DNA of 64,000 nt from an uncultured Nitrospiraceae bacterium. Its GTDB lineage: Bacteria; Nitrospirota; UBA9217. Location of the stretch: contig CAYUSP010000001.1 in the NCBI GenBank assembly GCA_964447405.1, positions 495,909 to 559,908 of the forward strand. The letters are read 5' to 3'. Position numbers and translations under genes: made by a program. Numbering within the stretch: position 1 is the first letter of the stretch; each line of letters starts with the position of its first letter. Below the pieces are notes generated by a model. It did no database searches. It had not been told where the DNA came from and saw only the letters and a program-made list of their open reading frames with translations. Positions 5,511 through 50,193 of this stretch are shown piece after piece.

Positions 5511-5550
5511 CGGCTTTTTGTTTCCGGCTTGTCCGGGTCAGGAATGCGAA

Positions 5551-6300
5551 ATGCTGCGCAACATTAAACTCGTTATCGAATACGACGGCACCAATTACCA
5601 TGGCTGGCAGTCCCAGATCGGAACAGGCAGGCCTACGATCCAGGATTCGATAGAGATGGCTATTGCCATGGTTGCCGCGGAAGACGTAACTACCTATTCG
5701 TCCGGACGGACGGATGCAGGCGTGCACGCATGGGGCCATGTGGCGAATTTCAGGACCTGCAGCACGATCCCTGCCGAGGCCTGGACCCCCGCATTAAACC
5801 ACGTGCTTCCTCCAGACATCCGGGTGGTCTCTTCGGTGGAGGTAAAAGACGATTTCCATGCCCGGTTCAGCGCGTTGAGGAAAACCTATGTGTACCGAAT
5901 TCTGAACCGGAAAGCACCGTCTGCAATTCATCGGCATTATTCCTGGCATGTGAACAGGCCGCTTGATCTTGAACGCATGCGACAGGAAGCCCTCCATCTT
6001 CAGGGAAAGCACGATTTCTCAGCCTTTCGAGGATCAGGTTGCGCTGCTAAAACGACGGTGAGGACGATGACGTCTGTGGCCATTCTGCACGAAGGCGATT
6101 TTGTTCTGGTCCGGATGGAAGCTGATGCTTTTCTGATGCATATGGCTCGGAATATCGTGGGAACTCTCGCGGAAATCGGGCTCGGCCGTTTTCAAGCTGA
6201 AGACGTTGCCATGATACTGGCTTCCCGTGACCGGACAAGGGCGGGCAGGACGGCCCCTCCCCAGGGTCTGTACCTGGAATCAGTGCGCTATACGGAATGA
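5551..6300 (+). CDS. truA: tRNA pseudouridine(38-40) synthase TruA
   Basis: Motifs LVIEYDGTNYHGWQ and RTDAGVHA (catalytic Asp) are present. I chose the MLRNIKL start. Confidence 0.85.
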   Translation: MLRNIKLVIEYDGTNYHGWQSQIGTGRPTIQDSIEMAIAMVAAEDVTTYSSGRTDAGVHAWGHVANFRTCSTIPAEAWTPALNHVLPPDIRVVSSVEVKDDFHARFSALRKTYVYRILNRKAPSAIHRHYSWHVNRPLDLERMRQEALHLQGKHDFSAFRGSGCAAKTTVRTMTSVAILHEGDFVLVRMEADAFLMHMARNIVGTLAEIGLGRFQAEDVAMILASRDRTRAGRTAPPQGLYLESVRYTE

Positions 6301-6401
6301 ACAACCGCGAATCGTTCGCAAAAGTGAAACAACTTTAGATGAATTCTCATACTTGCGAAAGCAAACCATTTGCTATATAGTATGAAAACAACAGCTTAGT
6401 G

Positions 6402-6417
6402 CTGGCATAGTACGTGC
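6402..6417 (+). promoter_or_regulatory. Candidate sigma54 (-24/-12) promoter TGGCAT-N5-GTGCA upstream of the cytochrome operon
   Basis: GG at 6403-6404 and GC at 6415-6416 with exact 10-nt spacing. It differs from the TGGCAC-N5-TTGCA consensus at 2 positions and lies about 220 nt upstream of ATG 6637. Confidence 0.4.
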
Positions 6418-6636
6418 ATTCCTGTGACCCGGACCATTGCATCATTGAGGAATGTCCGGATAGTTTCCGCTTCACCATCATTGCCCTCAGCAAATAATTA
6501 AACGTACAGCATTGCAGGCAGTTTTATAGTTCGCCTGGTTACGAGCCCGAAGAGCGCTGTTTCGTTGTGTCGAAGCACATTCGCACAGCTTGTATTTGTG
6601 CATACTACATACACTAGATTGTGAAAGGAGAACGTA

Positions 6637-7542
6637 ATGAGGAATTGGTTGAGCGCAGTACCGATTTTGTTGTGCATCCTCATCCTGGCCCCTTCGGCGG
6701 GTGCCGCGACCGACGCCGCGACCTGTCTGGGATGCCATGGATCCATGGAAGGAGCCGCTCAGGTGAACCAGGACAAATTCACCAAGTCGGTTCACGGGGG
6801 GATGAACGACTGCCTGATGTGCCATGTGACCCTGAAGGGAGCACAGCACCAGGGCCTGTCAGGAGGGAAACCTGACAAAATAGTACAGGCGCTTGCTGCC
6901 GGTCTGCTGCACAAAAGCAAGAAGGATGCCATTGCGCAGGCTGCCTGCGTGACATGCCATTCCGACAGCTATGAAAGCTACAAAGCGAGCGTGCATGGCC
7001 AGAACGTCCTTGCCAAAAAATTGAGCGATGGTCCTGTATGCACTGACTGCCACGGTTCGCCGCACTATATCCAATCCAAGGCCAGCAAGGAATCCGCGGT
7101 CAATCATTTCAACGTGGTCCAGAAAGCCTGCGGCAAGTGCCATGAAGAGAAGCATATGGCGGAGAAGTACGGTTTCTCGCCCAAGGTCATGGAGCGCTAC
7201 CTCGAGAGCTTCCACGGCAGAAAGCTGAAAGTCGGCCATAGCGGGGCACCATCATGTTCAAGCTGCCATGGTTCCCACGACATCAAGAGTGCCAAGGACT
7301 CAGCGTCGCCCGTAGTCGGTGCCAATAAGAAAAAGACCTGTGCGAAGTGCCATTCCGGAGCTACGGATAAATTCGTTGCCGCGATCACGCATAAACCGCT
7401 CCATCCCATCGCGCATTTCACCGAATTGGCTTTGATCGTCCTTACCATGGGCGTGTTTGTTTTTATCTGCATCCATGTTCTGCTGGATATTATCGCGGAC
7501 ATCCGCGAGAAAGTGTTCAAGAAGGGGGGCGGCCATGAATAA
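6637..7542 (+). CDS. Heptaheme c-type cytochrome with signal peptide and C-terminal membrane anchor (CbcA-like)
   Basis: There are seven CxxCH motifs: CLGCH, CLMCH, CVTCH, CTDCH, CGKCH, CSSCH, CAKCH. A GGAG Shine-Dalgarno sequence is present, and a C-terminal TM helix. Confidence 0.85.
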   Translation: MRNWLSAVPILLCILILAPSAGAATDAATCLGCHGSMEGAAQVNQDKFTKSVHGGMNDCLMCHVTLKGAQHQGLSGGKPDKIVQALAAGLLHKSKKDAIAQAACVTCHSDSYESYKASVHGQNVLAKKLSDGPVCTDCHGSPHYIQSKASKESAVNHFNVVQKACGKCHEEKHMAEKYGFSPKVMERYLESFHGRKLKVGHSGAPSCSSCHGSHDIKSAKDSASPVVGANKKKTCAKCHSGATDKFVAAITHKPLHPIAHFTELALIVLTMGVFVFICIHVLLDIIADIREKVFKKGGGHE

Positions 7543-8242
7543 TACCATACCGACCGAGATAGAGAGGTTCGACCTCTCTGCGAGAATTCAGCATGTCATC
7601 ATGTTCACGACGTTCCTGCTCCTGTCCTTTACCGGCTGGGGGCTGAAGTACGCATACCAGGATCCGGCCAGTTCCTGGATCCAGTTCTGGGGCGGCGCGA
7701 AGAGCGCCGGCCTTATCCACCGTGTGGCCGGCATTATCATGCTGCTGGATTTTGTGTACCACCAGTTCTATCTCGTAAACCAGGCGCGCAAAGGCGGTTT
7801 CCGTTTCTCCCTGGTGCCCATGCCCAAGGATGTGGTGGATGCATTCCACAACTTCATGTATTTTTTCGGTGTCCGGAAAGAGCGGCCGTATTTCGGCAAG
7901 TTCAACTACATGCAGAAGTTCGATTACTGGGCGGTTTACTGGGGAATGTTCATCATCGGGGCTTCGGGATTTTTTCTCGCATTCCCGGTTACCGTATCGC
8001 CGCTCTTCCCGTCATTTACGATCCCGTGGATCTGGGATGTGATGTTTGCCATGCATAGTGATGAGGCTCTGCTGGCGATCGTGTTCATTCTGATCTTCCA
8101 TTTTTACAACGAGCACCTGCGTTCTGAGGTGTTCCCCATGAACTGGATGTGGCTCACCGGCAAGATGACGATCGAACAGTTGAAGCATCACCATCCGGCT
8201 GAATATGATTACCAGTTCGGGGATAAAAATAAGAAGAAGTAA
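7535..8242 (+). CDS. Dihaem b-type cytochrome, FdnI/HydC (cytochrome b561) family membrane subunit (CbcB-like)
   Basis: Four TM helices carry conserved His residues (IQHVIMF, LIHRVAG, MHSD…HFYNEH). It overlaps the upstream cytochrome c gene by 8 nt (ATGAATAA), and GGGGGG precedes the ATG. Confidence 0.75.
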   Translation: MNNTIPTEIERFDLSARIQHVIMFTTFLLLSFTGWGLKYAYQDPASSWIQFWGGAKSAGLIHRVAGIIMLLDFVYHQFYLVNQARKGGFRFSLVPMPKDVVDAFHNFMYFFGVRKERPYFGKFNYMQKFDYWAVYWGMFIIGASGFFLAFPVTVSPLFPSFTIPWIWDVMFAMHSDEALLAIVFILIFHFYNEHLRSEVFPMNWMWLTGKMTIEQLKHHHPAEYDYQFGDKNKKK

Positions 8243-8270
8243 AACGCACTGAGCGTCTTTCAATAATTAC

Positions 8271-8309
8271 AAAACAAAACGGCGACCCATTGGGCCGCCG
8301 TTTTGTTTG
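8271..8309. terminator. Bidirectional rho-independent terminator between convergent genes
   Basis: aaaacaaaacGGCGaCCCattGGGcCGCCgttttgtttg forms a GC stem flanked by an A-run and a T-run. Confidence 0.7.
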
Positions 8310-8363: not shown

Positions 8364-8768
8364 TTATTTTACCAATTTTACGATCCCATCAAAATCCATT
8401 GATGTGCCGGATTTCGCTGCTTCTTCCTTTCGTTGGAAGGCAGCGATGCCCCAGCCCATGGGAGTGCTGAACTGTCTGGGCGAACTGATGTAAAAAGCCT
8501 TCCGAGCGTCGATCCATGAGCTTGTGGAAAAATCCCTTACCTCGGCAATGCCCGCGTTCAGTCCCTTTCTCTTGAGATGGACGATCAAATCGCCGATATC
8601 GCAGAAATGCAGAAAGGAATCCTGGTGGGTAAGCCGGGCACTGAATTTTGAGGCTGCATCGACCCTCATGCCGCACTCCGCGCAGGTATTGACAGCGGCG
8701 ATTGCCGGTGTCAGAGCTAAAACTGCGAGAATCAGTGCCGCCCCCGGGAAGGACAGATACTTTTTCAT
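8364..8768 (-). CDS. NosL-family (copper-chaperone-like) lipoprotein
   Basis: Signal peptide MKKYLSFPGAALILAVLALTPAIAAVNTC, then the CAECGM motif typical of NosL/DUF, about 135 aa. Confidence 0.55.
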   Translation of the reverse strand: MKKYLSFPGAALILAVLALTPAIAAVNTCAECGMRVDAASKFSARLTHQDSFLHFCDIGDLIVHLKRKGLNAGIAEVRDFSTSSWIDARKAFYISSPRQFSTPMGWGIAAFQRKEEAAKSGTSMDFDGIVKLVK

Positions 8769-8820
8769 CGGGTGTTTCCTTTCCGCGATATGCCCGGCTG
8801 AACGATCATACGTGCAAGCC

Positions 8821-8854
8821 GGAAACAAAAACCCCCCGAAAAGAATGCGGGGGG
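8821..8854 (-). terminator. Rho-independent terminator after rpmB
   Basis: A ccccccg…cgggggg hairpin is followed on the minus strand by tttttgttt. Confidence 0.65.
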
Positions 8855-8879: not shown

Positions 8880-9074
8880 TTAGCTGACTTTTTTTGCCTT
8901 GCCGGAACGGATGCAGCGGGTGCAAACATGCATGCGGACATGGGATCCGTTTGGTCCTACCGTCTTTACGCTCTGAATATTGGGTTTGCTGAACTTTTTG
9001 CTTTTGTTGTTGGCATGGCTCACTTTGTTGCCGCTCAGCTTGCCTTTGCCGCATTTCTGACAGGTACCTGACAC
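8880..9074 (-). CDS. rpmB: 50S ribosomal protein L28
   Basis: 64 aa: MSGTCQKCGKGKLSGNKVSHANNKSKKF…VCTRCIRSGK, the L28 pattern. Confidence 0.85.
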   Translation of the reverse strand: MSGTCQKCGKGKLSGNKVSHANNKSKKFSKPNIQSVKTVGPNGSHVRMHVCTRCIRSGKAKKVS

Positions 9075-9222: not shown

Positions 9223-9831
9223 ATGCGAAAAACCGCCACCAAAGCGAAGTTGTTAGAAGCCACACTCAAACTGATCTCGGAAAAAGGTTATCTCGGGGCC
9301 ACCACGCGGGAGATTGCTCATCAGGCAGGTGTCACCGAACTTACCCTGTTTCGGCATTTTGGGACAAAGGAAAAGCTCTTTGAAGAGCTCTTGAACAGCC
9401 ATACGTTCCTCCCGACCCTAAAGGAACTGCTTCCGGAACTGGAACACCATTCCTCTGAGGACGCCCTCAAACTCATTGCCACACGGTTTTTGCTTTCCTT
9501 GAATGAACGAAAAGCCATGGTCAAGATCATGTATTCCGAGGTCACCATCTATCCCGAGAAAATACGGGCGGTCTACAATAAGTTCATTGACGAGATGCGG
9601 TCAACGCTCGCCGGTTATTTTTCCCTCTTGAAGCGCCGCGGCCTGTTGAAAAAAAAGATATCCCCGGAGTTTGCGGCGAAGGTGTTTCTCTGGATCCTTT
9701 TTTCCTATTTTCGATCCGAGGAGATCATGCGTAAAGGCACCGGTATGAAAGGACCAAAGCTGCAAAAAAACATTGCAGAGATCGTAGATATATTCATGAG
9801 CGGGACCACGAACAGAAATCCAGTTCAGTAG
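9223..9831 (+). CDS. TetR/AcrR family transcriptional regulator
   Basis: An N-terminal HTH (TTREIAHQAGVTELTLFRHFGTKEKLF) begins the efflux operon. Confidence 0.85.
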   Translation: MRKTATKAKLLEATLKLISEKGYLGATTREIAHQAGVTELTLFRHFGTKEKLFEELLNSHTFLPTLKELLPELEHHSSEDALKLIATRFLLSLNERKAMVKIMYSEVTIYPEKIRAVYNKFIDEMRSTLAGYFSLLKRRGLLKKKISPEFAAKVFLWILFSYFRSEEIMRKGTGMKGPKLQKNIAEIVDIFMSGTTNRNPVQ

Positions 9832-9845
9832 CGGGAGAATTCACC

Positions 9846-11225
9846 ATGAGCCGAGAACGTCAATTCTTATTAATCGCTCTTTTTGTATTCTTTGTAACGC
9901 TGATGCCGGGGTTTGCATCTGCGGAGACAGCATCCCAGGTCCAGTCATTGGAAAGTCCGGAGCCCGCAACAAAGCAGAGCTTGACCTCCGGCATGGAGGT
10001 CCAGCAGATCCCGGTCCTGACTCTCAACCAGTGCATTGAAACGGCGCTCAGGAAGAATCCGGGCATAGTTGCAGCAGGCTCTACCGTGGATGTCAACCGG
10101 AGCAGAGTGGGAGAAACGCGAGCAGCTTATTACCCGCAGGTAAACGCACAGGCAGCGTATACCAGGACGAAGTCTTCAACAGAAACTTCCGGAGTCATCT
10201 CGAGCGGTTCCTCTCCGGTCAATGCAAGGACCGGCAGCATTACCTTGTCTCAAAATATCCTGGATTTCGGAAAGACCTCAAGACAGGTAGATATATCAAA
10301 ATTCAACCTCGATTCCTCCCGTGCAGATCTCGATGCTTCACAGAACACGATTATTTTTAACGTGAAACAGGCTTACTACACCGTTCTGCAGGCGCGAAGG
10401 AACCGTGATGTGGCTGCAGACGTCATCAAGCAGTTCCAACTGCACCTTGATCAGGCAAAGGGCTTCTATGATGTCGGAACCAAGGCGAGGATCGACGTGA
10501 TAAAGGCAGAGGTTGATCTCAGCAATGCCAGGCTCAAGCTCATTAATGCGGAGAACGCCCTGAATATAGCGTGGGTCACCCTCAATAATGCGATGGGCGA
10601 TCCAGACATGCCTGTTTATCGTATAGAAGACAACCTCTTGTTTCAGAAATACCCAATAACGCTTGAGGAGGCCAAAGCGCGTGCTTTCGAGAACAGGCCC
10701 GACCTCAGGTCGCTCATTGCGAAACAACAGGCGGCCGGGGAGAACGTCAGCCTCCAGCGGTCCGGCTATTATCCCGTTCTCATGGGCAATGCCACCTATG
10801 CCAAGACGGAACTTGATTCGCCGTCGGATACGACGACGAACAGCTGGAATGTCGGCGTTGTTCTGACCTTTCCTCTGTTCAGCGGCTTTCTGACAACGCA
10901 TCAGGTGGCGGAAGCAAAAGCAAACCTCTACGCATTGAAAGCGAGCGAAGAGTCGCTCAGGCAGCAGGTCCTGCTGGAGGTCCGACAGGCGTACCTGAAC
11001 CTGGAAGCGGCTGAGGCAAGCATTGCTACGGCGGAGCTGGCAGCTTCCCAGGCCAGGGAAAACTTGGATCTCGCTAATGGCAGATATTCTGCGGGAGTGG
11101 GGAGCCCTATTGAAGTGTCTGATGCCTTTGCAACGCATGTTGCTGCCCAGGCGAACTATACTGGATCCCTTGCCAATTATCGGATAGCCCAGGCAGCGAT
11201 CGAAAAGGCCATGGGCAAACGATGA
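9846..11225 (+). CDS. TolC-family outer membrane efflux protein
   Basis: It has a signal peptide, two repeated coiled-coil/beta halves, and a GGGAGA Shine-Dalgarno sequence. Confidence 0.85.
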   Translation: MSRERQFLLIALFVFFVTLMPGFASAETASQVQSLESPEPATKQSLTSGMEVQQIPVLTLNQCIETALRKNPGIVAAGSTVDVNRSRVGETRAAYYPQVNAQAAYTRTKSSTETSGVISSGSSPVNARTGSITLSQNILDFGKTSRQVDISKFNLDSSRADLDASQNTIIFNVKQAYYTVLQARRNRDVAADVIKQFQLHLDQAKGFYDVGTKARIDVIKAEVDLSNARLKLINAENALNIAWVTLNNAMGDPDMPVYRIEDNLLFQKYPITLEEAKARAFENRPDLRSLIAKQQAAGENVSLQRSGYYPVLMGNATYAKTELDSPSDTTTNSWNVGVVLTFPLFSGFLTTHQVAEAKANLYALKASEESLRQQVLLEVRQAYLNLEAAEASIATAELAASQARENLDLANGRYSAGVGSPIEVSDAFATHVAAQANYTGSLANYRIAQAAIEKAMGKR

Positions 11226-11256
11226 CGCGGGGCCGGACGAGAACAGGAAGGGAACA

Positions 11257-12423
11257 GTGATGCAGAATTCAAATCAAAGGTTGCCGTATTTCATCCATCT
11301 TTCACTCGTGCTGGTGCTTGTCATACCAGGTGCGTGCTCCAAGAGCAAGCAACCGCCTCCCAGGACCGTACCCGTGATCGCGGAAATTGCCGATCAAAGG
11401 AACATCCCGCTCCAGCTTAAGGTCATCGGCAATGTTGAACCGTTTAATGCCGTCACGGTAAAAGCCCTGGTTGGAGGTGAGATCGCAGGAGTTTATTTTA
11501 AGGAAGGGCAGGAGGTCAGGAAAGAAGCGCTCCTGTTCAAGATAGATCCGCGGCCCTACGAAGCCGCTCTCAAGCAGGCTGAAGCCTCTCTTGCGCGGGA
11601 TGTCGCACAGGCAAGGAACGCGGAGGAACAGGCCAAGCGATACGCCATTCTGGTGCAGAAGGATTATGTATCCAAGGACCAGTATGACCAGCTTCGCGCC
11701 AATGCCGATGCCCTCCTGGCCGTGGTTGAGGCTGACAAAGCCAATGTCGAGAACAGCCGGCTTCTGCTTGCCTATTGCACGATCAAGTCTCCGATCAACG
11801 GACGGGCCGGAAGCGTACTGGTCAATGCCGGTAACGTGATCAAAGCGAATGATATCGCGCTGACGACGATCAACCAGATGGTGCCGATTTACGTGACTTT
11901 TTCCATACCCGAGCAAAGCCTTGCGGATATAAAGAAATATACAGCGCAGGGCGAACTGAAGGTAGCCGCGATTATACCCGGGGATGAAAAAAGACCCGCG
12001 CTGGGCGATCTGACTTTTATCGACAATACCGTAGACAAGACCACGGGCACGATCAAGCTAAAGGGTACCTTTGCCAACGAGGATCGGAGGCTCTGGCCGG
12101 GTCAGTTCGTTGACGTCGTTCTGACGCTCACCACAGAACGGAACCGGGTAGTTGTTCCGTCACAGGCTGTGCAGACGGGCCAGCAGGGTCAATACGTCTA
12201 TGTGATAAAGGATGATATGAGCACGGATCTTCGTGTTGTTACCGTGGAGAGGGCATATGAAGGTTTTGCCGTCATCGGAAAGGGTATTGCAGCAGGCGAA
12301 AAGGTGGTAACCGATGGACAACTGCGTCTCGTGGCGGGGGCGAAGGTAGAGATCAAGAACTCAAAACCGGGGGAAGAGAAGACGGAAAAAAAACCGGAGC
12401 CAAAAGAAGAAACAAAGAAATAG
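11257..12423 (+). CDS. Efflux RND periplasmic adaptor (MFP, AcrA/MexA family) lipoprotein
   Basis: The lipobox is PGAC. It has MFP coiled-coil and beta-barrel regions and a Lys/Glu-rich C-terminal tail. Confidence 0.85.
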   Translation: MMQNSNQRLPYFIHLSLVLVLVIPGACSKSKQPPPRTVPVIAEIADQRNIPLQLKVIGNVEPFNAVTVKALVGGEIAGVYFKEGQEVRKEALLFKIDPRPYEAALKQAEASLARDVAQARNAEEQAKRYAILVQKDYVSKDQYDQLRANADALLAVVEADKANVENSRLLLAYCTIKSPINGRAGSVLVNAGNVIKANDIALTTINQMVPIYVTFSIPEQSLADIKKYTAQGELKVAAIIPGDEKRPALGDLTFIDNTVDKTTGTIKLKGTFANEDRRLWPGQFVDVVLTLTTERNRVVVPSQAVQTGQQGQYVYVIKDDMSTDLRVVTVERAYEGFAVIGKGIAAGEKVVTDGQLRLVAGAKVEIKNSKPGEEKTEKKPEPKEETKK

Positions 12424-12461
12424 TATTCCTCTGCGTCCTTTGCTGTTAAAACGGTTTTCCT

Positions 12462-15400
12462 ATGAATATCTCTGAACTATTTATCCGCCGTCCGGTCATG
12501 ACCACCCTGGTCATGCTCTCGATCCTGTTTGTCGGTATAGCCGGGTATCGTCAATTGCCTGTAAGCGACCTTCCTAACGTTGACTTTCCCACGATCCTGG
12601 TGTCGGCAAACGTTCCGGGAGCAAGCCCGGAGACAATGGCTTCTGCCGTTGCAACACCCCTTGAAAAGCAGTTCTCGACCATTGCTGGCATTGATTCCAT
12701 GACCTCGGCAAATGCGCAGGGTCTTACGACGATCACCATACAGTTTACACTGAGTCGCAGCATTGATGCCGCTGCCCAGGATGTGCAGGCTGCCATTGCA
12801 GCAGCAGCGCGTCAATTGCCGCAGGACATGCCGAGCCCGCCATCCTACCGCAAGGTTAATCCGGCTGACTCGCCAGTGCTCTATATGGCGCTCAGTTCCC
12901 CGACGTTGCCGCTTTCAAAAGTAGATGACTTCGCCCAGACCCTGATCGCCCAGCGTGTCTCCATGGTCAGCGGCGTTGCACAAGTGCAGGTCTACGGGTC
13001 CCAGAAATATGCAGTAAGGGCGCAGCTGAATCCTCGCGCCATGGCATCACGCGGCATCGGTATAGATGAAGTGGCAACTGCGGTTGCCCGCGCGAACGTG
13101 AATCTGCCCACCGGGACGCTCTACGGCGCCAATCAAGCCTTTACCGTTCAGGCCACAGGCCAACTCAATGATGCTGAAGCCTATCGTCCGATCATCGTGG
13201 CATACCGGGGCGGTTCACCGGTCCGCCTTCAGGAGCTTGGCCGGGTTATTGACAGCGTGGAAAATGACAAGGTAGCAAGCTGGTATCGCGATACTCGCGC
13301 CATCATCCTCGCGGTCCAGCGCCAGCCGGGCACGAATACGGTTGAGGTCGTTGATTCCATCAAGAAGCTCATACCGACGTTCAAGGAGCAGATGCCGGCA
13401 TCGGTAAAACTTGATATCCTGTTTGACCGGTCCATCTCCATTCGGGATTCGGTCGAGGATGTGAAATTCACCTTGTTCCTCACCGTTTGTCTCGTTGTCA
13501 TGGTCATTTTCCTGTTCCTCAGAAACCTCTCCGCTACGGTCATTCCCAGTTTGGCGCTTCCCATGTCCATTGTGGGGACGTTTGCCGTCATGTATCTGTG
13601 CGATTACAGCCTGGACAACATGTCGCTCATGGCGCTTACTCTTTCTGTCGGATTCGTAGTTGACGACGCCATTGTGATGCTCGAAAACATAATCCGTCAT
13701 ATGGAGATGGGAGAGACGGTCATGGAAGCCGCGCTCAAGGGGTCCAAAGAGATCGGCTTTACGATCCTTTCCATGACCATCTCGCTCGTGGCTGTCTTTC
13801 TTCCCGTGTTCTTCATGCCCGGCATCATCGGCCGACTCTTGCATGAATTCGCGGTAACCATTGGCATGTCCATTCTGATATCTGGTTTTGTCGCACTCAC
13901 GCTCACGCCCATGCTCGCGAGCCGTTTTATCAGGCCCCATGGCGGTGAACAGCACGGCAAGCTGTACCATGCATCGGAACGGTTCTTTGCCAGAATGCTC
14001 GCATTTTATGAACGGACGTTGACCTTTGTGCTCAGGCATCCAAAGGCCACCATGGCCGCTTCCGGGGTCATCCTTGCGGGCACCGTTGTCCTGTTCATGA
14101 TCATGCCAACCGGATTTCTGCCCAGCGAGGATACGGGGCAGTTGTTCATCGTCACGGAGACGGCGCAGGGAACGTCGTTCGACTCCATGAAACAACACCA
14201 GCTGGCACTATCAGACATCGTCATTAAGGATCCGAACGTCGACGGCTACATGTCGAGCATTGGCGCGGGTGGTGCGAACTCTTCAGGCAATCAGGGGCGT
14301 TTTTTTATCCGTCTCAAACCGCGCTCTGAACGCGATCTGCATGTCGACCAGGTAATCCAGAAATTGCGGCCCAAGCTGTCACAGGTGCCGGGTATCATGG
14401 CATTTCCGCAAAACCCGCCGCCAATCCGCATCGGTGGTACGCTCACCAAAAGTCTCTACCAGCTCACCCTCCAGAGTCCCAATACGGATGAGCTCTACGA
14501 ATACGCCCCAAAGCTCGAGGCAAAACTCCGCAATCTATCTCAGCTCCAGGACGTAACGAGCGATCTTCAGATCAAGAATCCGCAGGTGAATGTCGAAATA
14601 GACCGCGACAGGGCGTCGGCGCTCGGCATAACAGCCACGCAGGTTGAGGGGGCTCTCCAGACTGCATACAGCCAGCAGCAGATATCGACCATTTATGCGC
14701 CGACCAATCAATACCGGGTCATCATGGAGTTGGAGCCGCTGTATCAACGTGACCCCAATTCTCTCTCCCTGCTTTACATCCGGTCGTCAGCAGGCCCCTT
14801 AGTGCCGATCAGTGCTGTCTCGAAACTTTCCCAGAGTCTGGGGCCCTTATCCGTGAATCACCTGGGCCAATTGCCAGCGGTCACCCTGTCGTTTAACACG
14901 CGGCCTGACGTGTCCCTGGGCACTGCGGTTGATGCGGTGAACAAGGCTGCCCGACAAACGCTGCCGGCATCCATTACCACGAGTTTCCAGGGGACTGCCC
15001 AGGCATTCCAGTCGTCGATGCAGGGACTGGGGATACTCCTTATCGCAGCAACCATCGTTATCTATATCGTGCTCGGTATCTTGTACGAAAGCTTCATTCA
15101 TCCGTTCACGATCCTGTCAGCGCTGCCCTTCGCCGGCTTCGGCGCGCTTGTGACGCTCATGATCTTTGGATCCGATCTGAACGTCTATGCTTTTGTGGGA
15201 ATCATCCTCCTGGTGGGCTTGGTGAAAAAGAACGGCATCATGATGGTCGACTTTGCCCTCGATGCCCAGCGCAAAGAGGCAGCAGCACCAAAGGATGCCA
15301 TCTACAAGGCCTGTATTATACGGTTCCGTCCCATTATGATGACCACCATGGCCGCACTGCTTGGTACGCTTCCCATAGCCCTTGGTTTCGGTGCTGGTGC

Positions 15401-15569
15401 AGAATCACGACGTCCTCTCGGCCTTGCTGTGGTAGGAGGTCTCCTTTTCTCGCAAACATTAACCCTTTACGTTACCCCTGTTGTGTATCTGTATATGGAT
15501 CGGCTCCAAAGGAAGCTTGACCGATTGAAGATATTCCAGATACGGAAAAAAGTGATATCAATCGAGTAA
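12462..15569 (+). CDS. RND multidrug efflux transporter permease (AcrB/HAE1 family)
   Basis: 1035 aa, 12-TM architecture, with the conserved GFVVDDAIVMLENI motif. Confidence 0.9.
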   Translation: MNISELFIRRPVMTTLVMLSILFVGIAGYRQLPVSDLPNVDFPTILVSANVPGASPETMASAVATPLEKQFSTIAGIDSMTSANAQGLTTITIQFTLSRSIDAAAQDVQAAIAAAARQLPQDMPSPPSYRKVNPADSPVLYMALSSPTLPLSKVDDFAQTLIAQRVSMVSGVAQVQVYGSQKYAVRAQLNPRAMASRGIGIDEVATAVARANVNLPTGTLYGANQAFTVQATGQLNDAEAYRPIIVAYRGGSPVRLQELGRVIDSVENDKVASWYRDTRAIILAVQRQPGTNTVEVVDSIKKLIPTFKEQMPASVKLDILFDRSISIRDSVEDVKFTLFLTVCLVVMVIFLFLRNLSATVIPSLALPMSIVGTFAVMYLCDYSLDNMSLMALTLSVGFVVDDAIVMLENIIRHMEMGETVMEAALKGSKEIGFTILSMTISLVAVFLPVFFMPGIIGRLLHEFAVTIGMSILISGFVALTLTPMLASRFIRPHGGEQHGKLYHASERFFARMLAFYERTLTFVLRHPKATMAASGVILAGTVVLFMIMPTGFLPSEDTGQLFIVTETAQGTSFDSMKQHQLALSDIVIKDPNVDGYMSSIGAGGANSSGNQGRFFIRLKPRSERDLHVDQVIQKLRPKLSQVPGIMAFPQNPPPIRIGGTLTKSLYQLTLQSPNTDELYEYAPKLEAKLRNLSQLQDVTSDLQIKNPQVNVEIDRDRASALGITATQVEGALQTAYSQQQISTIYAPTNQYRVIMELEPLYQRDPNSLSLLYIRSSAGPLVPISAVSKLSQSLGPLSVNHLGQLPAVTLSFNTRPDVSLGTAVDAVNKAARQTLPASITTSFQGTAQAFQSSMQGLGILLIAATIVIYIVLGILYESFIHPFTILSALPFAGFGALVTLMIFGSDLNVYAFVGIILLVGLVKKNGIMMVDFALDAQRKEAAAPKDAIYKACIIRFRPIMMTTMAALLGTLPIALGFGAGAESRRPLGLAVVGGLLFSQTLTLYVTPVVYLYMDRLQRKLDRLKIFQIRKKVISIE

Positions 15570-15629: not shown

Positions 15630-16832
15630 GTGATGCGTTCCGGCAGAGACAAATGCAGCGTGGTACAACGGAAACCGAGGACGGCACAGCGTGTGATCAA
15701 GGTACTCATCCTGGCAATGGTGCTGTTCAGTTGCAAAGGCGATGGCCCCGCATTCAGGACCGAGCCAATAACGCGCGGCGATGTTCAGCAGACCGTAACC
15801 GCAACAGGAACGGTCAATGCCGTGACCACGGTACTGGTCGGCACGCAGGTTTCGGGCACGATCAAGAGTCTCTTCGTGGATTTTAATTCACGCGTCACAA
15901 AAGGTCAGCTCATTGCTTTAATCGATCCTGAGATGTTTGAGGCGCAGGTTGCCCAGGCAAAGGCGAACGTGGAAAAAGCCGAAGCGACCTTCCGTGACGC
16001 GGACCGGTCGATCACCAGAAACCGGGAATTGTTCTCAAGAAACCTTGTTCCCCGAAGCGATCTCGATACCGCTGAGACGAACTTTGACAGCGCCAAGGCG
16101 CAGGTGGAGCAGGCAAAGGCGGCTCTCAGGGTGGCGGACACGAATCTCCGCTATACGCGCATCCTGTCGCCGGTGGACGGCGTCGTCATCTCCCGGAACG
16201 TGGACATCGGCCAGACCGTTGCAGCCAGTTTTCAGACCCCGACCCTGTTTACGATCGCGCAGGATCTGACCAAGATGCAGCTCAACACGAATATCGCCGA
16301 GTCGGACATCGGCATCGTCAAGGTTGGGCAGGATGTCGAGTTCACGGTCGATGCTTATCCTGATACGATATTCAAGGGAAAGGTCTGGCAAAAGCGGCAG
16401 GCCCCGATCACGGTGCAGAACGTTGTGACCTACGATGTCGTCATCAAGGTCGACAACAGCGACCTGCGTTTGATGCCGGGTATGACCGCCAATGTCTCGA
16501 TCATCATAACTATACGGAACAACGTGCTCAGGATATCGAATACCGCACTGCGATTTAAAATGATTGACAAGCCGGCCGGAGCTTCAGGTGGTAATACCGG
16601 TTCCACCGGCGAGGCAAACAAACGCGGAGGCCCGAGCGCTGAAAAAAAGGGTCCGGCCGTATGGGTCCTTGAAGACGGAAAACCGAAGCGCATGGCCATA
16701 GAATCGGGCATTAGTGACGGAAATTATACCGAGGTCGTATCCGGCGACCTGAAAGAGGGGAACCAGGTCATTATCGAATCCTTAAAGAAGAACAAACCTC
16801 AACAGGCGCCGTCAGGTCCGAGGATGTTCTAA
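15630..16832 (+). CDS. MacA-like periplasmic adaptor (HlyD/MFP family)
   Basis: It has a TM anchor or signal, coiled-coil and beta-barrel regions, and directly precedes the MacB-type ABC genes. Confidence 0.8.
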   Translation: MMRSGRDKCSVVQRKPRTAQRVIKVLILAMVLFSCKGDGPAFRTEPITRGDVQQTVTATGTVNAVTTVLVGTQVSGTIKSLFVDFNSRVTKGQLIALIDPEMFEAQVAQAKANVEKAEATFRDADRSITRNRELFSRNLVPRSDLDTAETNFDSAKAQVEQAKAALRVADTNLRYTRILSPVDGVVISRNVDIGQTVAASFQTPTLFTIAQDLTKMQLNTNIAESDIGIVKVGQDVEFTVDAYPDTIFKGKVWQKRQAPITVQNVVTYDVVIKVDNSDLRLMPGMTANVSIIITIRNNVLRISNTALRFKMIDKPAGASGGNTGSTGEANKRGGPSAEKKGPAVWVLEDGKPKRMAIESGISDGNYTEVVSGDLKEGNQVIIESLKKNKPQQAPSGPRMF

Positions 16833-16833
16833 G

Positions 16834-17526
16834 ATGACGCTCATTGAAGCACGGAACCTAAGTAAGGTCTATAGTCTTGGTGATGTGGACGTGCGCGCAT
16901 TGGACGGAATCTCCACGACCATCGATAAAGGCGAGTTCGTCGCGATCATGGGGCAGTCCGGTTCGGGCAAGTCGACCTTCATGAACATGCTTGGCTGCCT
17001 GGATACGCCCACGGGCGGTCACTATCTCCTTGACGGTGTTGATACCAGCGGCCTGTCGCGTGACGATCTGGCGGAGATACGGAACAAGAAACTCGGTTTC
17101 GTGTTTCAGGGTTTTAATCTCCTGTCGCGCACGTCAGCCGTGGAGAACGTGGAGCTGCCTCTGCTGTACGATGGTTCGCCCGCGAAGGAGCGAAGGGTGC
17201 GGGCGCGGGCCGCTCTCAAGAGCGTCGGACTCGAGGGGAGGGAGGGGCATCATCCCAACCAGCTTTCCGGCGGTCAGCAGCAGCGCGTTGCCATCGCACG
17301 CGCGCTGGTGAACGATGCGCCCATCATCCTAGCCGATGAACCAACGGGGAACCTCGACACGAAGACCAGTGTCGAAATCATGGAACTACTCGTTAAGCTC
17401 AATCGCGATTCGAACATAACGGTCATCCTGGTGACCCATGAATCGGATATAGCGTCTTTCAGCAAGAGGATCATCCGGTTCTCGGACGGCCGCATCGTCA
17501 GCGATAAACCGGTAAACAAACCATGA
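16834..17526 (+). CDS. ABC transporter ATP-binding protein (MacB/LolD family)
   Basis: GQSGSGKST, LSGGQQQRVAIARAL and [11 protein letters not shown] are present. Confidence 0.9.
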   Translation: MTLIEARNLSKVYSLGDVDVRALDGISTTIDKGEFVAIMGQSGSGKSTFMNMLGCLDTPTGGHYLLDGVDTSGLSRDDLAEIRNKKLGFVFQGFNLLSRTSAVENVELPLLYDGSPAKERRVRARAALKSVGLEGREGHHPNQLSGGQQQRVAIARALVNDAPIILADEPTGNLDTKTSVEIMELLVKLNRDSNITVILVTHESDIASFSKRIIRFSDGRIVSDKPVNKP

Positions 17527-18752
17527 TCAATATTCCATCCACCTTCAAGATATCCTTCCGCGCACTGCGGGTGAACAAGATGCGTTCCGCCCTTACCATG
17601 CTCGGCATCATCATCGGCGTCGGCGCCGTGATCGCCATGGTCGCCGTGGGTACGGGAGCAAGCCAGAAGATCGCCGAGCAGATCTCCAGCATGGGCAGCA
17701 ACCTGCTGATTATTCTTCCCGGTGCAACGACCGCTGGTGGCGTTCGCATGGGCGCAGGAACGCAGCCTACGCTCAGCATGGGCGATGCAGAAGCGATCAT
17801 CCGGGAATGCCCTGCGGTATCGGATGCGGCTCCTATCCACAACGGTGTTGCACAGGTGGTCTTTGGCCATATGAACTGGTCAACGGGAGTCATCGGCACG
17901 ACCCCGTCCCTGCTTATCGTTCGGGAATGGGACCTTACGGCAGGAAGGTCGTTCACTACACAGGACGTAAAAAGTGCTACGAAAGTAGCCATGCTCGGAC
18001 AGACCGTGGTGGACAATCTATTTGGGGAACAAAATCCCGTGGGACAATCGATCAGGATCAAGAACGTCCCTTTCACCGTGATCGGTGTTCTCGGGAAAAA
18101 AGGGCAGAATGCCCAGGGTCAGGACCAGGATGATACGATCATGATACCGGTGACCACGGCGCAGAAGAAGCTCTTCGGGACCCAGTTCCCGGGCATGGTG
18201 CGGATCATCACCGTCAAAGCCAGGAGCGCCGAAGATCTTGCCGGGGCTGAACGTCAGATCAATGAACTTCTCCGGCAGCGGCACCGGATCGGCCCAAAAC
18301 AGGACAATGACTTCACGGTCAGGAACCTCACGCAGATCATGCAGGCTGCGGAGGCGTCAACGAAAGTGATGACCATGCTGCTTGGGGCCATCGCTTCGGT
18401 CTCGCTCCTCGTCGGCGGGATCGGCATTATGAACATCATGCTCGTGTCGGTCACCGAACGTACCCGCGAGATCGGGATCCGCATGGCCATCGGCGCCAAG
18501 ACGTGGGACATCCGGCTCCAGTTCATAATTGAAGCGCTCACCTTGTCGCTGATCGGGGGGGTCGTCGGCATCATTATCGGAGTATCCGCATCCATCGTCC
18601 TTTCCTCGATCTCGGGCTGGCCAACCGTAGTATCAGGTCTCTCGATTGTTCTGGCTTTTGGTTTCTCCGGCTTCATCGGAATCTTTTTCGGTTTCTACCC
18701 CGCGTACAAAGCCTCGCTCCTGAATCCGATCGACGCACTCAGATATGAATAG
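17523..18752 (+). CDS. ABC transporter permease, FtsX/MacB family
   Basis: An N-terminal TM helix, a large periplasmic domain, then 3 C-terminal TM helices with the ERTREIGIRMAIGA motif. Confidence 0.85.
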   Translation: MINIPSTFKISFRALRVNKMRSALTMLGIIIGVGAVIAMVAVGTGASQKIAEQISSMGSNLLIILPGATTAGGVRMGAGTQPTLSMGDAEAIIRECPAVSDAAPIHNGVAQVVFGHMNWSTGVIGTTPSLLIVREWDLTAGRSFTTQDVKSATKVAMLGQTVVDNLFGEQNPVGQSIRIKNVPFTVIGVLGKKGQNAQGQDQDDTIMIPVTTAQKKLFGTQFPGMVRIITVKARSAEDLAGAERQINELLRQRHRIGPKQDNDFTVRNLTQIMQAAEASTKVMTMLLGAIASVSLLVGGIGIMNIMLVSVTERTREIGIRMAIGAKTWDIRLQFIIEALTLSLIGGVVGIIIGVSASIVLSSISGWPTVVSGLSIVLAFGFSGFIGIFFGFYPAYKASLLNPIDALRYE

Positions 18753-22678: not shown

Positions 22679-23047
22679 ATGACGATCTGGGAAAAAGTTA
22701 TTCTGAATATACGGCGCGGTTCGCAGCGGGTCGCCATTGCTGCAGCGCTTGTGGCGGAGCGGGCGCGGGCCGAGCTTACTATCGTGCGGCTGCGGATCAG
22801 GCACGATGAGGTCAATGCCACGATCAATGAATTGTACCAGGGAATCGGACGCAGGGTCAAAAGCCTCGCAACAAGCGGAACCATGCCTAAAACATGTGAG
22901 CTACTTCTGCAGGATGAGGAAATTACATCCGCATTTGCCGAGTTGATCGAGCGGGAGAAGGAGATCGAGGAGCTGAACAACGAGATCAGGAGCGTTCAGG
23001 TGACGATCAAGACAGCGCCGAAACAGCGGGCGGAAGGCAGCGCATGA
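22679..23047 (+). CDS. Hypothetical coiled-coil protein translationally coupled to pilD
   Basis: 122 aa, predicted helical. It overlaps the pilD start by 4 nt (ATGA). Confidence 0.5.
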   Translation: MTIWEKVILNIRRGSQRVAIAAALVAERARAELTIVRLRIRHDEVNATINELYQGIGRRVKSLATSGTMPKTCELLLQDEEITSAFAELIEREKEIEELNNEIRSVQVTIKTAPKQRAEGSA

Positions 23048-23871
23048 TCACTGCCGTGGTTTTTATTTTCGGTCTTATCGTGGGCAGTTTTTTGAACGTT
23101 TGTATCGCGCGGATCCCTCTTGGACGTTCCATTGCGACCCCGCCGTCCCACTGTCCGCAGTGCAGCAAAGGGATCCGGTTTTATGACAACATCCCTCTGC
23201 TCAGTTATCTTCTGCTCCGGGGCAGGTGCCGACACTGCGGCCTGCCGATTTCCTTCAGATATCCGCTCGTCGAGCTCATGAATGGCCTCCTCTATGTCTG
23301 GATCGAGCATGAGTTCTGGCTTGGCGGCGAAACACTGCTCATCATGCTGTTGTGTTCGGCATTGATCGTAATCACTTTCATTGATTATGACCATCAGATC
23401 ATCCCCGATGTCATCAGCCTGCCGGGGATGCTGATAGGGATCGTGATCGCTCCGTTCTTCCTGATGGCGCTGGCGGAGCCGCTTCCGTTCCCGATCGATC
23501 GCATGATGCCTCTCGCAGGACCGTACCTGACAGCGCTCACGAACTCATTGCTCGGAGTGCTGTGCGGCGGCGTCCCGCTATTTGCCATCGGGTGGATTTG
23601 GGAAAAGTTACGTCATGTGGAGGCAATGGGCGGCGGTGATATAAAACTGATGGGAATGGTCGGAAGCTTTCTGGGCTGGAAGGGCGCACTGCTCACCATC
23701 ATGATCGGCTCACTAGCCGGGTCACTGGTCGGTGTTCTTCTGATCCTGCTCAAAAAGCATGAGATGGGCAAGGTTATGCCGTTCGGTCCCTATCTGGCAT
23801 TTGGCGCCGTGCTCAGTGCTTTCTATGCCTCAGATATCATTTCGTGGTACCTTGGATTCATCCGGCTATGA
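23044..23871 (+). CDS. pilD: Prepilin peptidase / N-methyltransferase (A24 family)
   Basis: The N-terminal tetra-Cys motif is CPQC…CRHC. It is polytopic with the conserved LMNGLLYVW… pattern. Confidence 0.85.
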   Translation: MITAVVFIFGLIVGSFLNVCIARIPLGRSIATPPSHCPQCSKGIRFYDNIPLLSYLLLRGRCRHCGLPISFRYPLVELMNGLLYVWIEHEFWLGGETLLIMLLCSALIVITFIDYDHQIIPDVISLPGMLIGIVIAPFFLMALAEPLPFPIDRMMPLAGPYLTALTNSLLGVLCGGVPLFAIGWIWEKLRHVEAMGGGDIKLMGMVGSFLGWKGALLTIMIGSLAGSLVGVLLILLKKHEMGKVMPFGPYLAFGAVLSAFYASDIISWYLGFIRL

Positions 23872-25139
23872 CATCGCAAATCGTGCTCATACTCTTGCTG
23901 GGCGTGCTGATCATACTGGCGGGCGCCGCTGTATTCTGGGGCATCACTCGCAGATATCGCCGCGAGCTGGGAATGCAGAGCGAAGTGCGGGACAAGACCT
24001 CTGAAACCTCTTTCATTATTAATGCCTTTCAGGATGTCACGAAACAACTGAAGGAAAAGGAAAAGGAACTTGAACGGCTTAAAGCAATTGCTGAGCAGCG
24101 TGCGGAGACGATCGAGAGCTATCACGAAAACATCCTCCAGTGCGTTACGAGCGGGGTGATGACATTTGATGCCGCCTGCCGCCTGACCACCTTTAACCGC
24201 TCCGCCGAGGAACTGCTCGGTCTGAAACAGGGAAGCGCGGACAGGGTGGACTGCGTTACCCTGTTCGGTGACAACGAAATCACGAGAGCGGTGCATACGA
24301 CGCTCGACACAGGGACGCCCTCTGCACGCATGGAGGCAATGATAACGAGACAGGATGGCAGAATATGGCTGGGTTTCAATACCGCGATCCTTGCTGATAG
24401 AAAAGGCTCCGCGCTTGGTGTTATTCTGTCATTTTCAGACCTCACTGAAGTGAAGCGTTTGCAGGAACAGGTGGAATTGCGCGAGCGGCTCTCGGCGCTT
24501 GGCGAGATGTCCGCCGGCATCGCACACGAATTGCGGAATCCCATGGCTGTCATGAGCGGCTATCTCAGCCTGCTGTCGAAGAAGGCTAGCAGCGAGCATC
24601 AGAAAATCATTCAGAGCATCACCAGCGAGATCACCGGGATGAACCGCATCATCGGCGAGCTCCTCGCCTTCGCGAGGCCCGCTTCGCTCAACCGGGTAAA
24701 GGTTTCCCTGAAAGAAATGGTTGAAGGATGTGTAGTTCAAGCTCTGCAGGCCGCTGGGGCGGGAAAAACCGTGAAGACCGAAATCAGTCTGGTTGACGGT
24801 GATATAGCCGCTGACGAGATGCTGATCAGGCAGGCTGTCACGAACTTGTTCCAGAATGCCATTGAGGCAATGTCGGAAGAGGGGACGCTGACGGTGTCCT
24901 TGCGGCGTAGTGCAGAGGATGTCATTCTTGAAGTCAAGGACACGGGGCAGGGTATAGCGCCCGGCAATATTAAAAAAATATTCATGCCATTTTTTACGAC
25001 GAAGGACAACGGCATCGGTATGGGGCTCGCACTGACGCACAAGATCGTAACGTCCCATGGCGGGCGGATCGAAGTGGAGAGCGAGCCTGGCAGAGGGACG
25101 ACGTTCCGCGTTTCGCTTCCGCGAGGTAACTGTTCATGA
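23868..25139 (+). CDS. Sensor histidine kinase (PAS + HisKA + HATPase), PilS/NtrB-like by context
   Basis: One TM helix, a PAS domain, H-box AHELRNPM, N/G boxes. ATGA overlaps the pilD stop. Confidence 0.8.
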   Translation: MTSQIVLILLLGVLIILAGAAVFWGITRRYRRELGMQSEVRDKTSETSFIINAFQDVTKQLKEKEKELERLKAIAEQRAETIESYHENILQCVTSGVMTFDAACRLTTFNRSAEELLGLKQGSADRVDCVTLFGDNEITRAVHTTLDTGTPSARMEAMITRQDGRIWLGFNTAILADRKGSALGVILSFSDLTEVKRLQEQVELRERLSALGEMSAGIAHELRNPMAVMSGYLSLLSKKASSEHQKIIQSITSEITGMNRIIGELLAFARPASLNRVKVSLKEMVEGCVVQALQAAGAGKTVKTEISLVDGDIAADEMLIRQAVTNLFQNAIEAMSEEGTLTVSLRRSAEDVILEVKDTGQGIAPGNIKKIFMPFFTTKDNGIGMGLALTHKIVTSHGGRIEVESEPGRGTTFRVSLPRGNCS

Positions 25140-33955: not shown

Positions 33956-34159
33956 AAAGAGGCTGGTATTAAACATCTAAAGTTATAATTTGGTGTTGAC
34001 GCGGACAAAAGCATGTGTTAGTTTACTTCACCTTCTAAAAGATAAATACCCTTTTTATAAAAGGAGGTGGTTCGAAAAAAGCACTTAGAATCAGAGCCGC
34101 ATATTTTAGAGTTCCATTGGGTTTAATTCCATTAACGATAAAGAACGGGGAGGAATGGC

Positions 34160-35308: not shown

Positions 35309-35336
35309 TAATCTGAAATCAAAGAATGAACTAACA

Positions 35337-35375
35337 AACCTTCTCTGCGGGGCTTCCCGTGGAGAAGGTTTTTTT
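35337..35375 (+). terminator. Rho-independent terminator after the 34160 gene
   Basis: aaccttctc…gagaaggtt stem followed by ttttt. Confidence 0.65.
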
Positions 35376-35392
35376 ATGCTATTATAATAATC

Positions 35393-36589: not shown

Positions 36590-36592
36590 TAC

Positions 36593-47250: not shown

Positions 47251-47303
47251 AGAAAGTACTTATTTTGCGATACAGGCCATAATGCCAGAAGGAGGAACAG
47301 ATC

Positions 47304-50165: not shown

Positions 50166-50193
50166 ATTGTAAATTATCTGCGAAGATCCGATA

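Follow-up and report, generated by a model that had tools for sequence, protein, structure and literature searches.

The window analysed here, a 64,000-nucleotide stretch of DNA from an uncultured Nitrospiraceae bacterium (contig CAYUSP010000001.1, positions 495,909 to 559,908), carries a two-gene respiratory module that encodes a heptaheme c-type cytochrome and an FdnI-fold cytochrome b. We consider it likely that the two genes are a self-contained operon for an inner-membrane bc-type complex, which would connect the menaquinone pool with periplasmic c-type cytochromes under the control of sigma-54. This conclusion draws on the observed gene structure, heme motifs, fold, and conservation of the module, together with the conservation and specificity of the cis elements upstream of it. 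Quinone:cytochrome c gates in the inner membrane set how much energy is kept by anaerobes that move electrons to or from the periplasm, and few such gates have been characterised, mostly in Geobacter and Shewanella. As a relative of an already known type of respiratory module, the module is solid and holds no great surprise; its novelty is modest and lies in a two-gene variant from Nitrospirota that has no adjoining regulator and in a defined enhancer architecture.

The two cytochromes, their distribution and the direction of electron flow

The module consists of two overlapping genes on the plus strand, flanked by truA (5518-6300) and a convergent nosL-like gene (8364-8828, minus strand). The same calls for both cytochrome genes are recorded on an identical public contig (L001), on which truA, with its stop at 6300, matches PF01416. 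An earlier note on this DNA, made from the sequence alone, had described a seven-CxxCH cytochrome with a C-terminal transmembrane anchor, overlapping by 8 nt an FdnI/HydC-type cytochrome b. The gene structure agrees with this description: the 301-residue product of the first gene carries the seven motifs and the anchor, the overlap lies at 7535-7542 (ATGAATAA), and the partner belongs to PF01292 and has the FdnI fold. The start of the cytochrome b gene was taken as the ATG at 7535, in agreement with the gene calls for the public contig and for relatives; an upstream TTG start that is also in the list of open reading frames (ORFs) was not used.

The cytochrome c contains exactly seven CxxCH motifs, encoded at 6724, 6811, 6946, 7039, 7129, 7255, and 7339, between a Sec-type signal peptide (residues 1-23, MRNWLSAVPILLCILILAPSAGA) and a C-terminal hydrophobic membrane helix (approximately residues 261-285, FTELALIVLTMGVFVFICIHVLL). 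All 14 heme cysteines and the seven proximal histidines are kept in 69 of 69 aligned homologues, as is a histidine within the anchor helix, H280 (codon 7474-7476). Candidates for the distal ligands are H53, H71, H120, H143, H193, H214, and H252, six of which are 96-100% conserved among the 69 homologues, the seventh, H71, being kept in 78%.

The cytochrome b was assigned by Pfam to PF01292 (Ni_hydr_CYTB, E 1e-10). Its AlphaFold2 model, built with 50 homologues, has a mean predicted local distance difference test (pLDDT) score of 94.4 and four long helices, and its sole significant fold neighbour in the PDB is chain C of the Escherichia coli formate dehydrogenase-N structure, the gamma subunit FdnI (1kqf_C, E 8.5e-6, template modelling (TM) scores 0.72/0.77, 19% identity). 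A sequence search of the PDB gave no match for either cytochrome. Every full-length sequence in the set of the 150 best cluster representatives carries H20, H62, H174, and H189, which we take to match in position the FdnI heme ligands H18, H57, H155, and H169. Three further histidines that FdnI lacks, H76, H194, and H220, accompany them in 113 of 151 family representatives. To judge from helix position, H76, H189, and H194, together with H280 of the cytochrome c anchor, would lie toward the cytoplasmic side, which is the quinone-binding face of FdnI. Since seven histidines of the cytochrome b and one of the cytochrome c anchor exceed what two b hemes need, a third heme or an unusual quinone or proton site is possible.

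The nearest homologues of both proteins are found in metagenome-assembled genomes of Nitrospirota, with Thermodesulfovibrionales and Candidatus Sulfobium among the named relatives. An exhaustive search for relatives of the cytochrome b retrieved 1,901 clusters at 50% identity; fusions to a multiheme domain, often with seven motifs, are numerous among them. In a comparison of the best 80 loci from species-representative genomes, nearly all scorable loci had a cytochrome c homologue directly upstream of, or fused to, the cytochrome b, almost always with seven CxxCH motifs. This pairing spans Nitrospirota, Myxococcota (including Anaeromyxobacter genomes), Chloroflexota, Acidobacteriota, and Armatimonadota, and the ten 50%-identity cluster representatives that were looked up bore names from Firmicutes, Actinobacteria, and Euryarchaeota only. 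The recurrence of the arrangement across phyla marks the c-b pair as an old, conserved unit.

Two forms of the module in other phyla may be described here. In the Anaeromyxobacter-type loci L048, L049, L053, L057, L058, L060, and L063, the two cytochromes are fused in one ORF of about 565-590 codons. In three of these loci (L049, L060, and L063), GGGCATG-N4-GTTGCA, a strong promoter sequence, lies 32 nt before the start of the fused gene. All seven have a gene for a receiver-type activator on the downstream side, at a distance of about 1 kb or more. The cultured Firmicute Metallumcola ferriviriculae (CP121694.1; L166, 6115-13437) has two tandem sets, each composed of a heptaheme cytochrome c, a cytochrome b, and a 12-heme cytochrome c. 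The first of its cytochromes b is 41% identical to that of the window; no sigma-54-like site was seen upstream of this module. M. ferriviriculae is an Fe(III) reducer.

From these features the following working model may be proposed. The heptaheme subunit would be exported and held in the membrane by its C-terminal helix, which carries H280 and would pack against the four-helix, FdnI-like diheme cytochrome b. If FdnI is taken as a guide, the quinone site would be situated toward the cytoplasmic face, and electrons would cross the membrane through the two b hemes to or from the seven c hemes. We infer complex formation, quinone reactivity, and the direction of flow from the architecture of the two proteins. 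With a quinone site so placed, quinol oxidation would run counter to the membrane potential, with little energy conserved, and quinone reduction by periplasmic electrons would generate a membrane potential. A dissipative oxidation of quinol would be in line with the low growth yield that has been described for CbcBA, the related complex of Geobacter sulfurreducens (Joshi, Chan and Bond 2021, bioRxiv 10.1101/2021.04.15.440034).

It is conceivable, although we hold it to be somewhat short of probable, that the complex runs mainly in the opposite direction, passing electrons from periplasmic cytochromes to menaquinone at the cytoplasmic face and thereby conserving energy in the manner of formate dehydrogenase-N. 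The FdnI fold and the histidine positions, which imply a quinone site on the cytoplasmic side, fit such a role, and so does the affiliation of the host with a Nitrospirota group whose named relatives are those given above. The same reversal has been proposed for the CbcBA of the sulfate-reducing Seep-SRB2 lineage, but reversibility has not been demonstrated even for Geobacter CbcBA (Murali et al., PMC10553843). No enzymes of the donor side are encoded nearby, and none of the genes within the window would decide the direction of flow.

Relation to CbcBA of Geobacter

The earlier note had assigned the module to the CbcBA type, and as far as the architecture is concerned the assignment agrees with the published description, in which a heptaheme cytochrome c with a C-terminal anchor is followed by an FdnI/HydC-type cytochrome b. 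Respiration by Geobacter below about -0.21 V depends on this complex. In CbcBA of G. sulfurreducens (Cbc5; GSU0593-0594), CbcA has seven hemes and a C-terminal anchor with a candidate b-heme histidine, CbcB is a four-helix diheme cytochrome b with three conserved ligand histidines and one more supplied by CbcA, and the operon is transcribed from a sigma-54 promoter with a divergent gene for the receiver-type activator BccR; homologues, gene fusions among them, were noted in other phyla (bioRxiv 10.1101/2021.04.15.440034). By description, the window resembles this system in its anchored seven-heme cytochrome c with an anchor histidine, its four-helix diheme cytochrome b, the gene order, the sigma-54 promoter (predicted in silico in the window), and the signs of co-transcription, namely the 8-nt overlap and a terminator-like hairpin after the cytochrome b gene (8272-8308). 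It differs from CbcBA in having no adjacent regulator or accessory genes, and its promoter immediately precedes the cytochrome c gene, whereas that of Geobacter lies three genes upstream. An activator with the domain plan of BccR (receiver, AAA+, and helix-turn-helix (HTH) domains) stands beside the module in sister clades and in Myxococcota but not in the window.

The sister clusters of Nitrospirota (e.g., L021, L023, L027, and L028) show what a fuller version of the locus looks like. In these clusters one or more small ORFs are followed by the heptaheme cytochrome c, the cytochrome b, and a nine-heme cytochrome c, with convergent genes for a kinase, an activator, and a 95-residue protein. 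Their cytochromes b are 51-64% and their cytochromes c 42-49% identical to those of the window, and they share with it the 8-nt overlap and the upstream order of two dyads, a site like that of integration host factor (IHF), and a sigma-54 element, with identical spacing. Confined to the sister clusters are at least one small gene between the promoter and the cytochrome c gene, the nine-heme periplasmic cytochrome of the c7 type, and the adjoining two-component regulator. The clade of the window has lost or moved the small genes, the nine-heme cytochrome, and the regulator, and its module now lies between truA and nosL/rpmB.

Several observations tell against equating the module with CbcBA. The cytochrome b of the window has four canonical and three further conserved histidines, four to seven in all, compared with the three plus one from CbcA reported for Geobacter, a difference that may be real or may stem from the alignment. 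A published CbcB tree (Murali et al., PMC10553843, S2 Data), in which one clade is labelled Nitrospirae and G. sulfurreducens is represented by WP_010941256.1 (presumably GSU0593), draws on other paralogues than the type of the window in two shared assemblies: in Candidatus Sulfobium mesophilum the tree uses SPQ01291.1, the homologue of the window type being SPQ01238.1 (62% identical to the protein of the window), and in the second assembly it uses NJD57718.1, the corresponding protein of the window type being NJD57002.1. The taxa of that tree (among them Geobacter, Desulfobulbia, Thermodesulfobacteria, Xanthomonadales, and Burkholderiales; PMC10553843), as we read it, do not overlap with those nearest to the protein of the window. 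No Geobacter sequence appeared among the best 80 genome loci or in either of two lists of the best 120 cytochrome b homologues; the list seeded with an Anaeromyxobacter-type b domain contained neither Geobacter nor a named cultured Anaeromyxobacter. The plasmid collection gave no match.

The fact that these genomes hold at least two paralogues, of which a tree seeded with Geobacter and Seep-SRB2 sequences picked the one that is not of the window type, suggests that the window type is a sister subfamily. The module is thus CbcBA-like in design and control, and it is probably sister, or paralogous, to CbcBA itself. The statement of the earlier note that this kind of complex is used near the thermodynamic limit cannot be carried over to it. 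A CbcBA-like architecture equals neither orthology nor proof of extracellular electron transfer.

A bolder reading is possible, and we offer it tentatively: the module may represent a separate, widespread quinone-cytochrome family and not a peripheral branch of CbcBA. Such a family would be defined by a heptaheme cytochrome c paired with an FdnI-like cytochrome b, by about 1,900 clusters ranging from Nitrospirota and Myxococcota to Firmicutes, Actinobacteria, and Euryarchaeota, by eight conserved histidines in or near the membrane, and, in Nitrospirota, by a dedicated regulon (a CxxCH-Cache kinase, a sigma-54 activator of the receiver type, and an enhancer of the form TTGCA-N4-TGCAA) that has outlasted the separation of the structural genes from the regulator by relocation. 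We regard as rather unlikely the opposite extreme, in which the module is a strict orthologue of Geobacter CbcBA and serves the oxidation of menaquinol at low potential in extracellular electron transfer near the thermodynamic limit. Every architectural and regulatory trait described by Joshi et al. is matched save the adjacent regulator, the sister clades add periplasmic c7-type multiheme cytochromes and the receiver-type activator, and the module occurs in the cultured iron reducer M. ferriviriculae. Nevertheless, the different proteins used in the CbcB tree, the disjunct taxa, and the apparently deviating histidine pattern speak against orthology, as does the lack of genes for an outer-membrane conduit within the window. 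What can be said with more assurance is that the design of CbcBA and the logic of its sigma-54 control appear to be conserved in uncultured Nitrospirota.

Promoter and regulator

The leader between the truA stop and the ATG of the cytochrome c gene is 336 nt long, with a GC content of 43% compared with 51% for the window. It contains TGGCATAGTACGTGCA, in which the GG-N10-GC spacing of a sigma-54 element is correct and whose 3′ end is 219 nt upstream of the ATG. The earlier note had placed such an element about 220 nt upstream in a 340-bp AT-rich leader, which fits these values. It had also called the element near-consensus; with nine of 12 specified positions of TGGCACG-N4-TTGCW this wording is too generous, yet the element itself appears to be a genuine promoter on the evidence from relatives.

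This evidence comes from loci that keep the local synteny (genes for a branched-chain amino-acid-type ABC transporter, truA, the leader, and the two cytochromes) and from a more distant clade. The leaders of the synteny-keeping relatives are poorly conserved save for a few blocks. Besides eight genome relatives, a metagenome scan gave 21 more close relatives, of which the 17 with at least 300 nt upstream were scored, and 37 distinct promoter sites were stacked in all. The best-conserved block among the 37 is TGGCAT(G/A)-N4-xTGC(A/T), and in all eight aligned leaders GAAAGGAGA(A/G)(A/G)GTATG, the ribosome-binding site with the start codon, is invariant or nearly so. The -24/-12 block was found in five of the eight genome relatives and 13 of the 17 metagenome relatives, i.e., in about 18 of 25 members of the clade of the window.

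Upstream of this block two dyads with the family consensus TTGCA-N4-TGCAA were recognised. The second of them has in the window a subclade form, TTCTCA-N4-TGCGAA, which recurs in L088-L091, L094, L099, and L104. In both clades AAAATCAA-N4-TT(A/G) is kept between the dyads and the -24 element, and in the window the corresponding segment matches 12 of 13 positions of an IHF consensus that we presume to be WATCAANNNNTTR. The distance between the dyad centres (29 bp) and that from dyad 2 to TGGCA (44 nt) are the same in the window and in L021. In the distant clade the two dyads and the IHF-like block again precede TGGCATG-N4-xTGC(A/T), which is located 5′ of the small ORFs, at about 0.8-1.3 kb before the cytochrome c gene. 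A profile built with nhmmer from seven promoters of the distant clade only, whose cytochromes b are 51-59% identical to that of the window, had a single significant match on either strand of the window, at 6315-6420 (E 4.6e-4; the next, 0.14), and across all fetched loci the matches of the promoter profile were confined to regions upstream of the module. Accordance of the GG-N10-GC element with upstream sites, and an activator of the appropriate type encoded in the window, could thus be recorded in silico. It was the conservation of the whole enhancer-promoter block that made the sigma-54 assignment convincing, since the motif alone is not significant. On this comparative evidence the sigma-54 promoter is very probably real, and the promoter call of the earlier note, statistically a lucky one, seems to have been right.

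Some observations weigh on the other side. The window has two occurrences of the core TGGCA-N7-TGCA where 0.77 would be expected, which by itself is chance level, and the -12 element deviates from the consensus in having G for T. The GG and the dyads are both absent in three of the eight genome relatives (L007, L009, and L010) and in four of the 17 metagenome relatives, which indicates that this control is not universal, although the joint loss in the three genome relatives is the pattern expected if the elements act as a unit. Neither rpoN nor a cognate activator is encoded within the 64-kb window, and the one activator of this class that is present shares only 41-44% identity with the module-linked activators, compared with 60-80% among the latter. 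A weak sigma-70-type match, TTGCGA-17-TATAGT (9/12), lies at 6353-6381 (TATAGT, 6376-6381).

The last match, the chance-level frequency of the motif, and the several close relatives without the GG together allow for an operon read from a sigma-70 promoter in the leader, with the sigma-54-like motif as a chance match or relic. We judge this improbable, because the whole block is kept, at constant spacing, in clades with leaders that cannot otherwise be aligned, and the promoter profile is specific for its position at 6315-6420; moreover, the presumptive -35 hexamer is half of dyad 2, and its spacing to the AT-rich hexamer is not conserved.

In the sigma-54-dependent scheme that we prefer, the promoter would stay silent until a response-regulator-type activator, for which the dyads are presumed to be the binding sites, occupies both of them and loops over the IHF-bent spacer, with transcription starting near 6429. 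Sigma-54 dependence in vivo and the identity of the regulator are, like the start site, inferred from the cis elements and their conservation. The arrangement resembles NtrC-type enhancer promoters in its GG-N10-GC element, its two dyads about 50-90 bp upstream, and the IHF-like site between them and the element; the group of the window differs from those promoters in the dyad sequence, TTGCA-N4-TGCAA, and in an xTGCA instead of a TTGCA at -12. The search for upstream activator sites in the leader that the earlier note had recommended has thereby yielded two candidates, and a concrete cis-regulatory model with two dyads, an IHF site, a -24/-12 element, and a predicted type of regulator can be put forward. 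An inverted repeat TTCGCAA/TTGCGAA with a separation of 38 bp, considered at an earlier stage, was replaced by the two 14-bp dyads on the comparative data.

The roughly 200-nt untranslated region had no match in Rfam and a folding z-score of -0.07. BLAST with this region found no match in any related locus, where the untranslated regions are about 40 to 210 nt long, and no convincing small ORF was found in the leader. A riboswitch or structured leader was rejected on the grounds of the Rfam result, the z-score, and the lack of conservation. The second TGGCA-N7-TGCA of the window (TGGCACCATGAGTGCA, 33077-33092, plus strand) lies inside a gene for a tetratricopeptide repeat protein (32775-33485); it was set aside as a promoter for its location in a coding region and is probably a chance match. 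The second-best match of the enhancer profile, a dyad-like sequence (TTTCTGCATTTCTGCGA) at 8585-8625 on the minus strand, is inside the nosL-like gene and not significant (E 0.14).

As to the regulator, the earlier note had seen no adjacent enhancer-binding protein and had concluded that an unlinked regulator would be needed. Both statements stand, the nearest activator gene (25136-26521) being about 17 kb downstream of the module, and the type of the regulator and its putative sites can now be described. That activator, a 461-residue protein with receiver, sigma-54 AAA+, and HTH_8 domains, is encoded at the end of a plus-strand stretch (23044-26521) that also contains genes for a prepilin peptidase (PF06750/PF01478) and a 431-residue histidine kinase and looks like a pilS/pilR-type unit. 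Its presence indicates that the organism uses sigma-54 activators. It was rejected as the cognate regulator because its identity to the module-linked activators is at the level of paralogues and it adjoins the prepilin peptidase and a kinase of its own; it looks like a pilus-type paralogue.

About 28 of the 80 loci, many from Myxococcota among them, have a sigma-54 activator gene 2-3 kb from the cytochrome c start. In the sister clades the pair adjoining the module is a kinase with dCache, PAS, HisKA, and HATPase domains and an activator with receiver, AAA+, and HTH domains. The kinase (L021, 13267-15318, minus strand; also L023, L028, and L017) combines dCache with one or two CxxCH motifs (e.g., CFKCH) in the N-terminal sensor region, which suggests a periplasmic redox or ligand sensor with a c-type heme. 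The conserved dyads imply that an orthologue of the module-linked activator is encoded elsewhere in the genome of the window; we presume that this activator and a Cache/PAS kinase with CxxCH motifs would act from there, unlike the arrangement in the sister clades. At two further loci (L029, 4272-6176; L052, 4087-5775), the activator gene lies directly 3′ of the module on the same strand and is followed by a second, fused heptaheme c-b paralogue.

Features of the respiratory module and its leader, in window coordinates
Feature	Positions	Strand	Remarks
Dyad 1 (putative activator site), TCGCA-AAAG-TGAAA	6316-6329	+	In register with dyad 1 of 37 distinct promoter regions
Dyad 2 (putative activator site), TCTCA-TACT-TGCGA	6345-6358	+	Spacing to dyad 1 and to TGGCA as in L021
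IHF-like site, AAACAACAGCTTA	6386-6398	+	12/13 positions of the presumed consensus WATCAANNNNTTR
Predicted sigma-54 -24/-12 element, TGGCATAGTACGTGCA	6403-6418	+	GG 6404-6405, GC 6416-6417
5′ untranslated region, ~200 nt	6419-6622	+	Lineage-specific, no detected function
Ribosome-binding site of the cytochrome c gene, GAAAGGAGA	6623-6631	+	Conserved in eight aligned leaders
Heptaheme c-type cytochrome, 301 residues	6637-7542	+	Seven CxxCH, signal peptide, C-terminal helix
FdnI-fold cytochrome b, 235 residues, four membrane helices	7535-8242	+	PF01292, AlphaFold2, fold match
Putative terminator hairpin	8272-8308	both	Palindromic, GC-rich, 17 pairs (9 G-C), T-runs on both strands

Neighbouring genes

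In public records the b proteins of this module are commonly labelled "formate dehydrogenase gamma subunit". It is very improbable that the module serves to anchor a formate dehydrogenase or hydrogenase in the membrane, or that it is a quinol dehydrogenase of the NapC/NrfH type: the public names, a match to NCBIfam TIGR01583 (FdnI), and a PF03264 (NapC/NirT) score of 28.9 bits for the cytochrome c, above the cut-off of 24.1, point that way, but the TIGR01583 score of the cytochrome b, 45.8 bits, is far below the equivalog cut-off of 115.85, and no catalytic genes of formate dehydrogenase or hydrogenase were found in the window locus or in any related locus examined. The likeness to FdnI lies in the fold and the four canonical histidines, and the partner of the cytochrome b is a multiheme cytochrome c instead of FdnGH. 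NapC and NrfH have four hemes, an N-terminal anchor, and no cytochrome b partner. By comparison, the cytochrome c of the window has seven hemes and a C-terminal anchor, its signal peptide is cleavable, and it is paired with a cytochrome b; the grouping with formate dehydrogenase gamma subunits or NapC/NrfH-type proteins that the earlier note had named as a refutation was therefore not observed.

The hairpin that follows the cytochrome b gene is predicted to be an intrinsic terminator common to the operon and the convergent gene for a NosL-like lipoprotein. Farther downstream, at 33485-37273 on the plus strand, genes for a PCuAC copper chaperone, a 382-residue protein without assignment, and FtsX and ABC proteins are found. 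In two other loci (L002, 6815-11219; L005, 6825-10785), NosL with ABC/FtsX genes and a beta-propeller protein lies directly 3′ of the module. The NosL, PCuAC, FtsX, and ABC genes could be a copper or nos-accessory cluster.

Next to the nosL-like gene is a 64-codon ORF on the minus strand (8880-9074, MSGTCQKCGKGKLSGNKVSHANNKSKK...), at which the public contig has no gene call and which we take to encode a ribosomal protein L28-like product (rpmB). The plus-strand genes at 9223-15569 encode a TetR regulator, an outer-membrane efflux protein, and a membrane-fusion protein, assigned by Pfam on the public contig, followed by a 1035-residue protein; the group looks like a resistance-nodulation-division (RND) efflux operon, with the last gene presumed to encode the RND pump. 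A second set at 15630-18752 comprises HlyD, a presumed ABC protein (230 residues, no domain scan), and FtsX. The rest of the window encodes efflux systems, DNA repair enzymes, peptidases, and signalling proteins. Toward its end (45946-59184, plus strand) are genes for two FadL/TodX-like outer-membrane proteins and two large M6-peptidase-like proteins, and alongside this region three large ORFs of the window (953, 660, and 382 residues) were noted as having no Pfam match.

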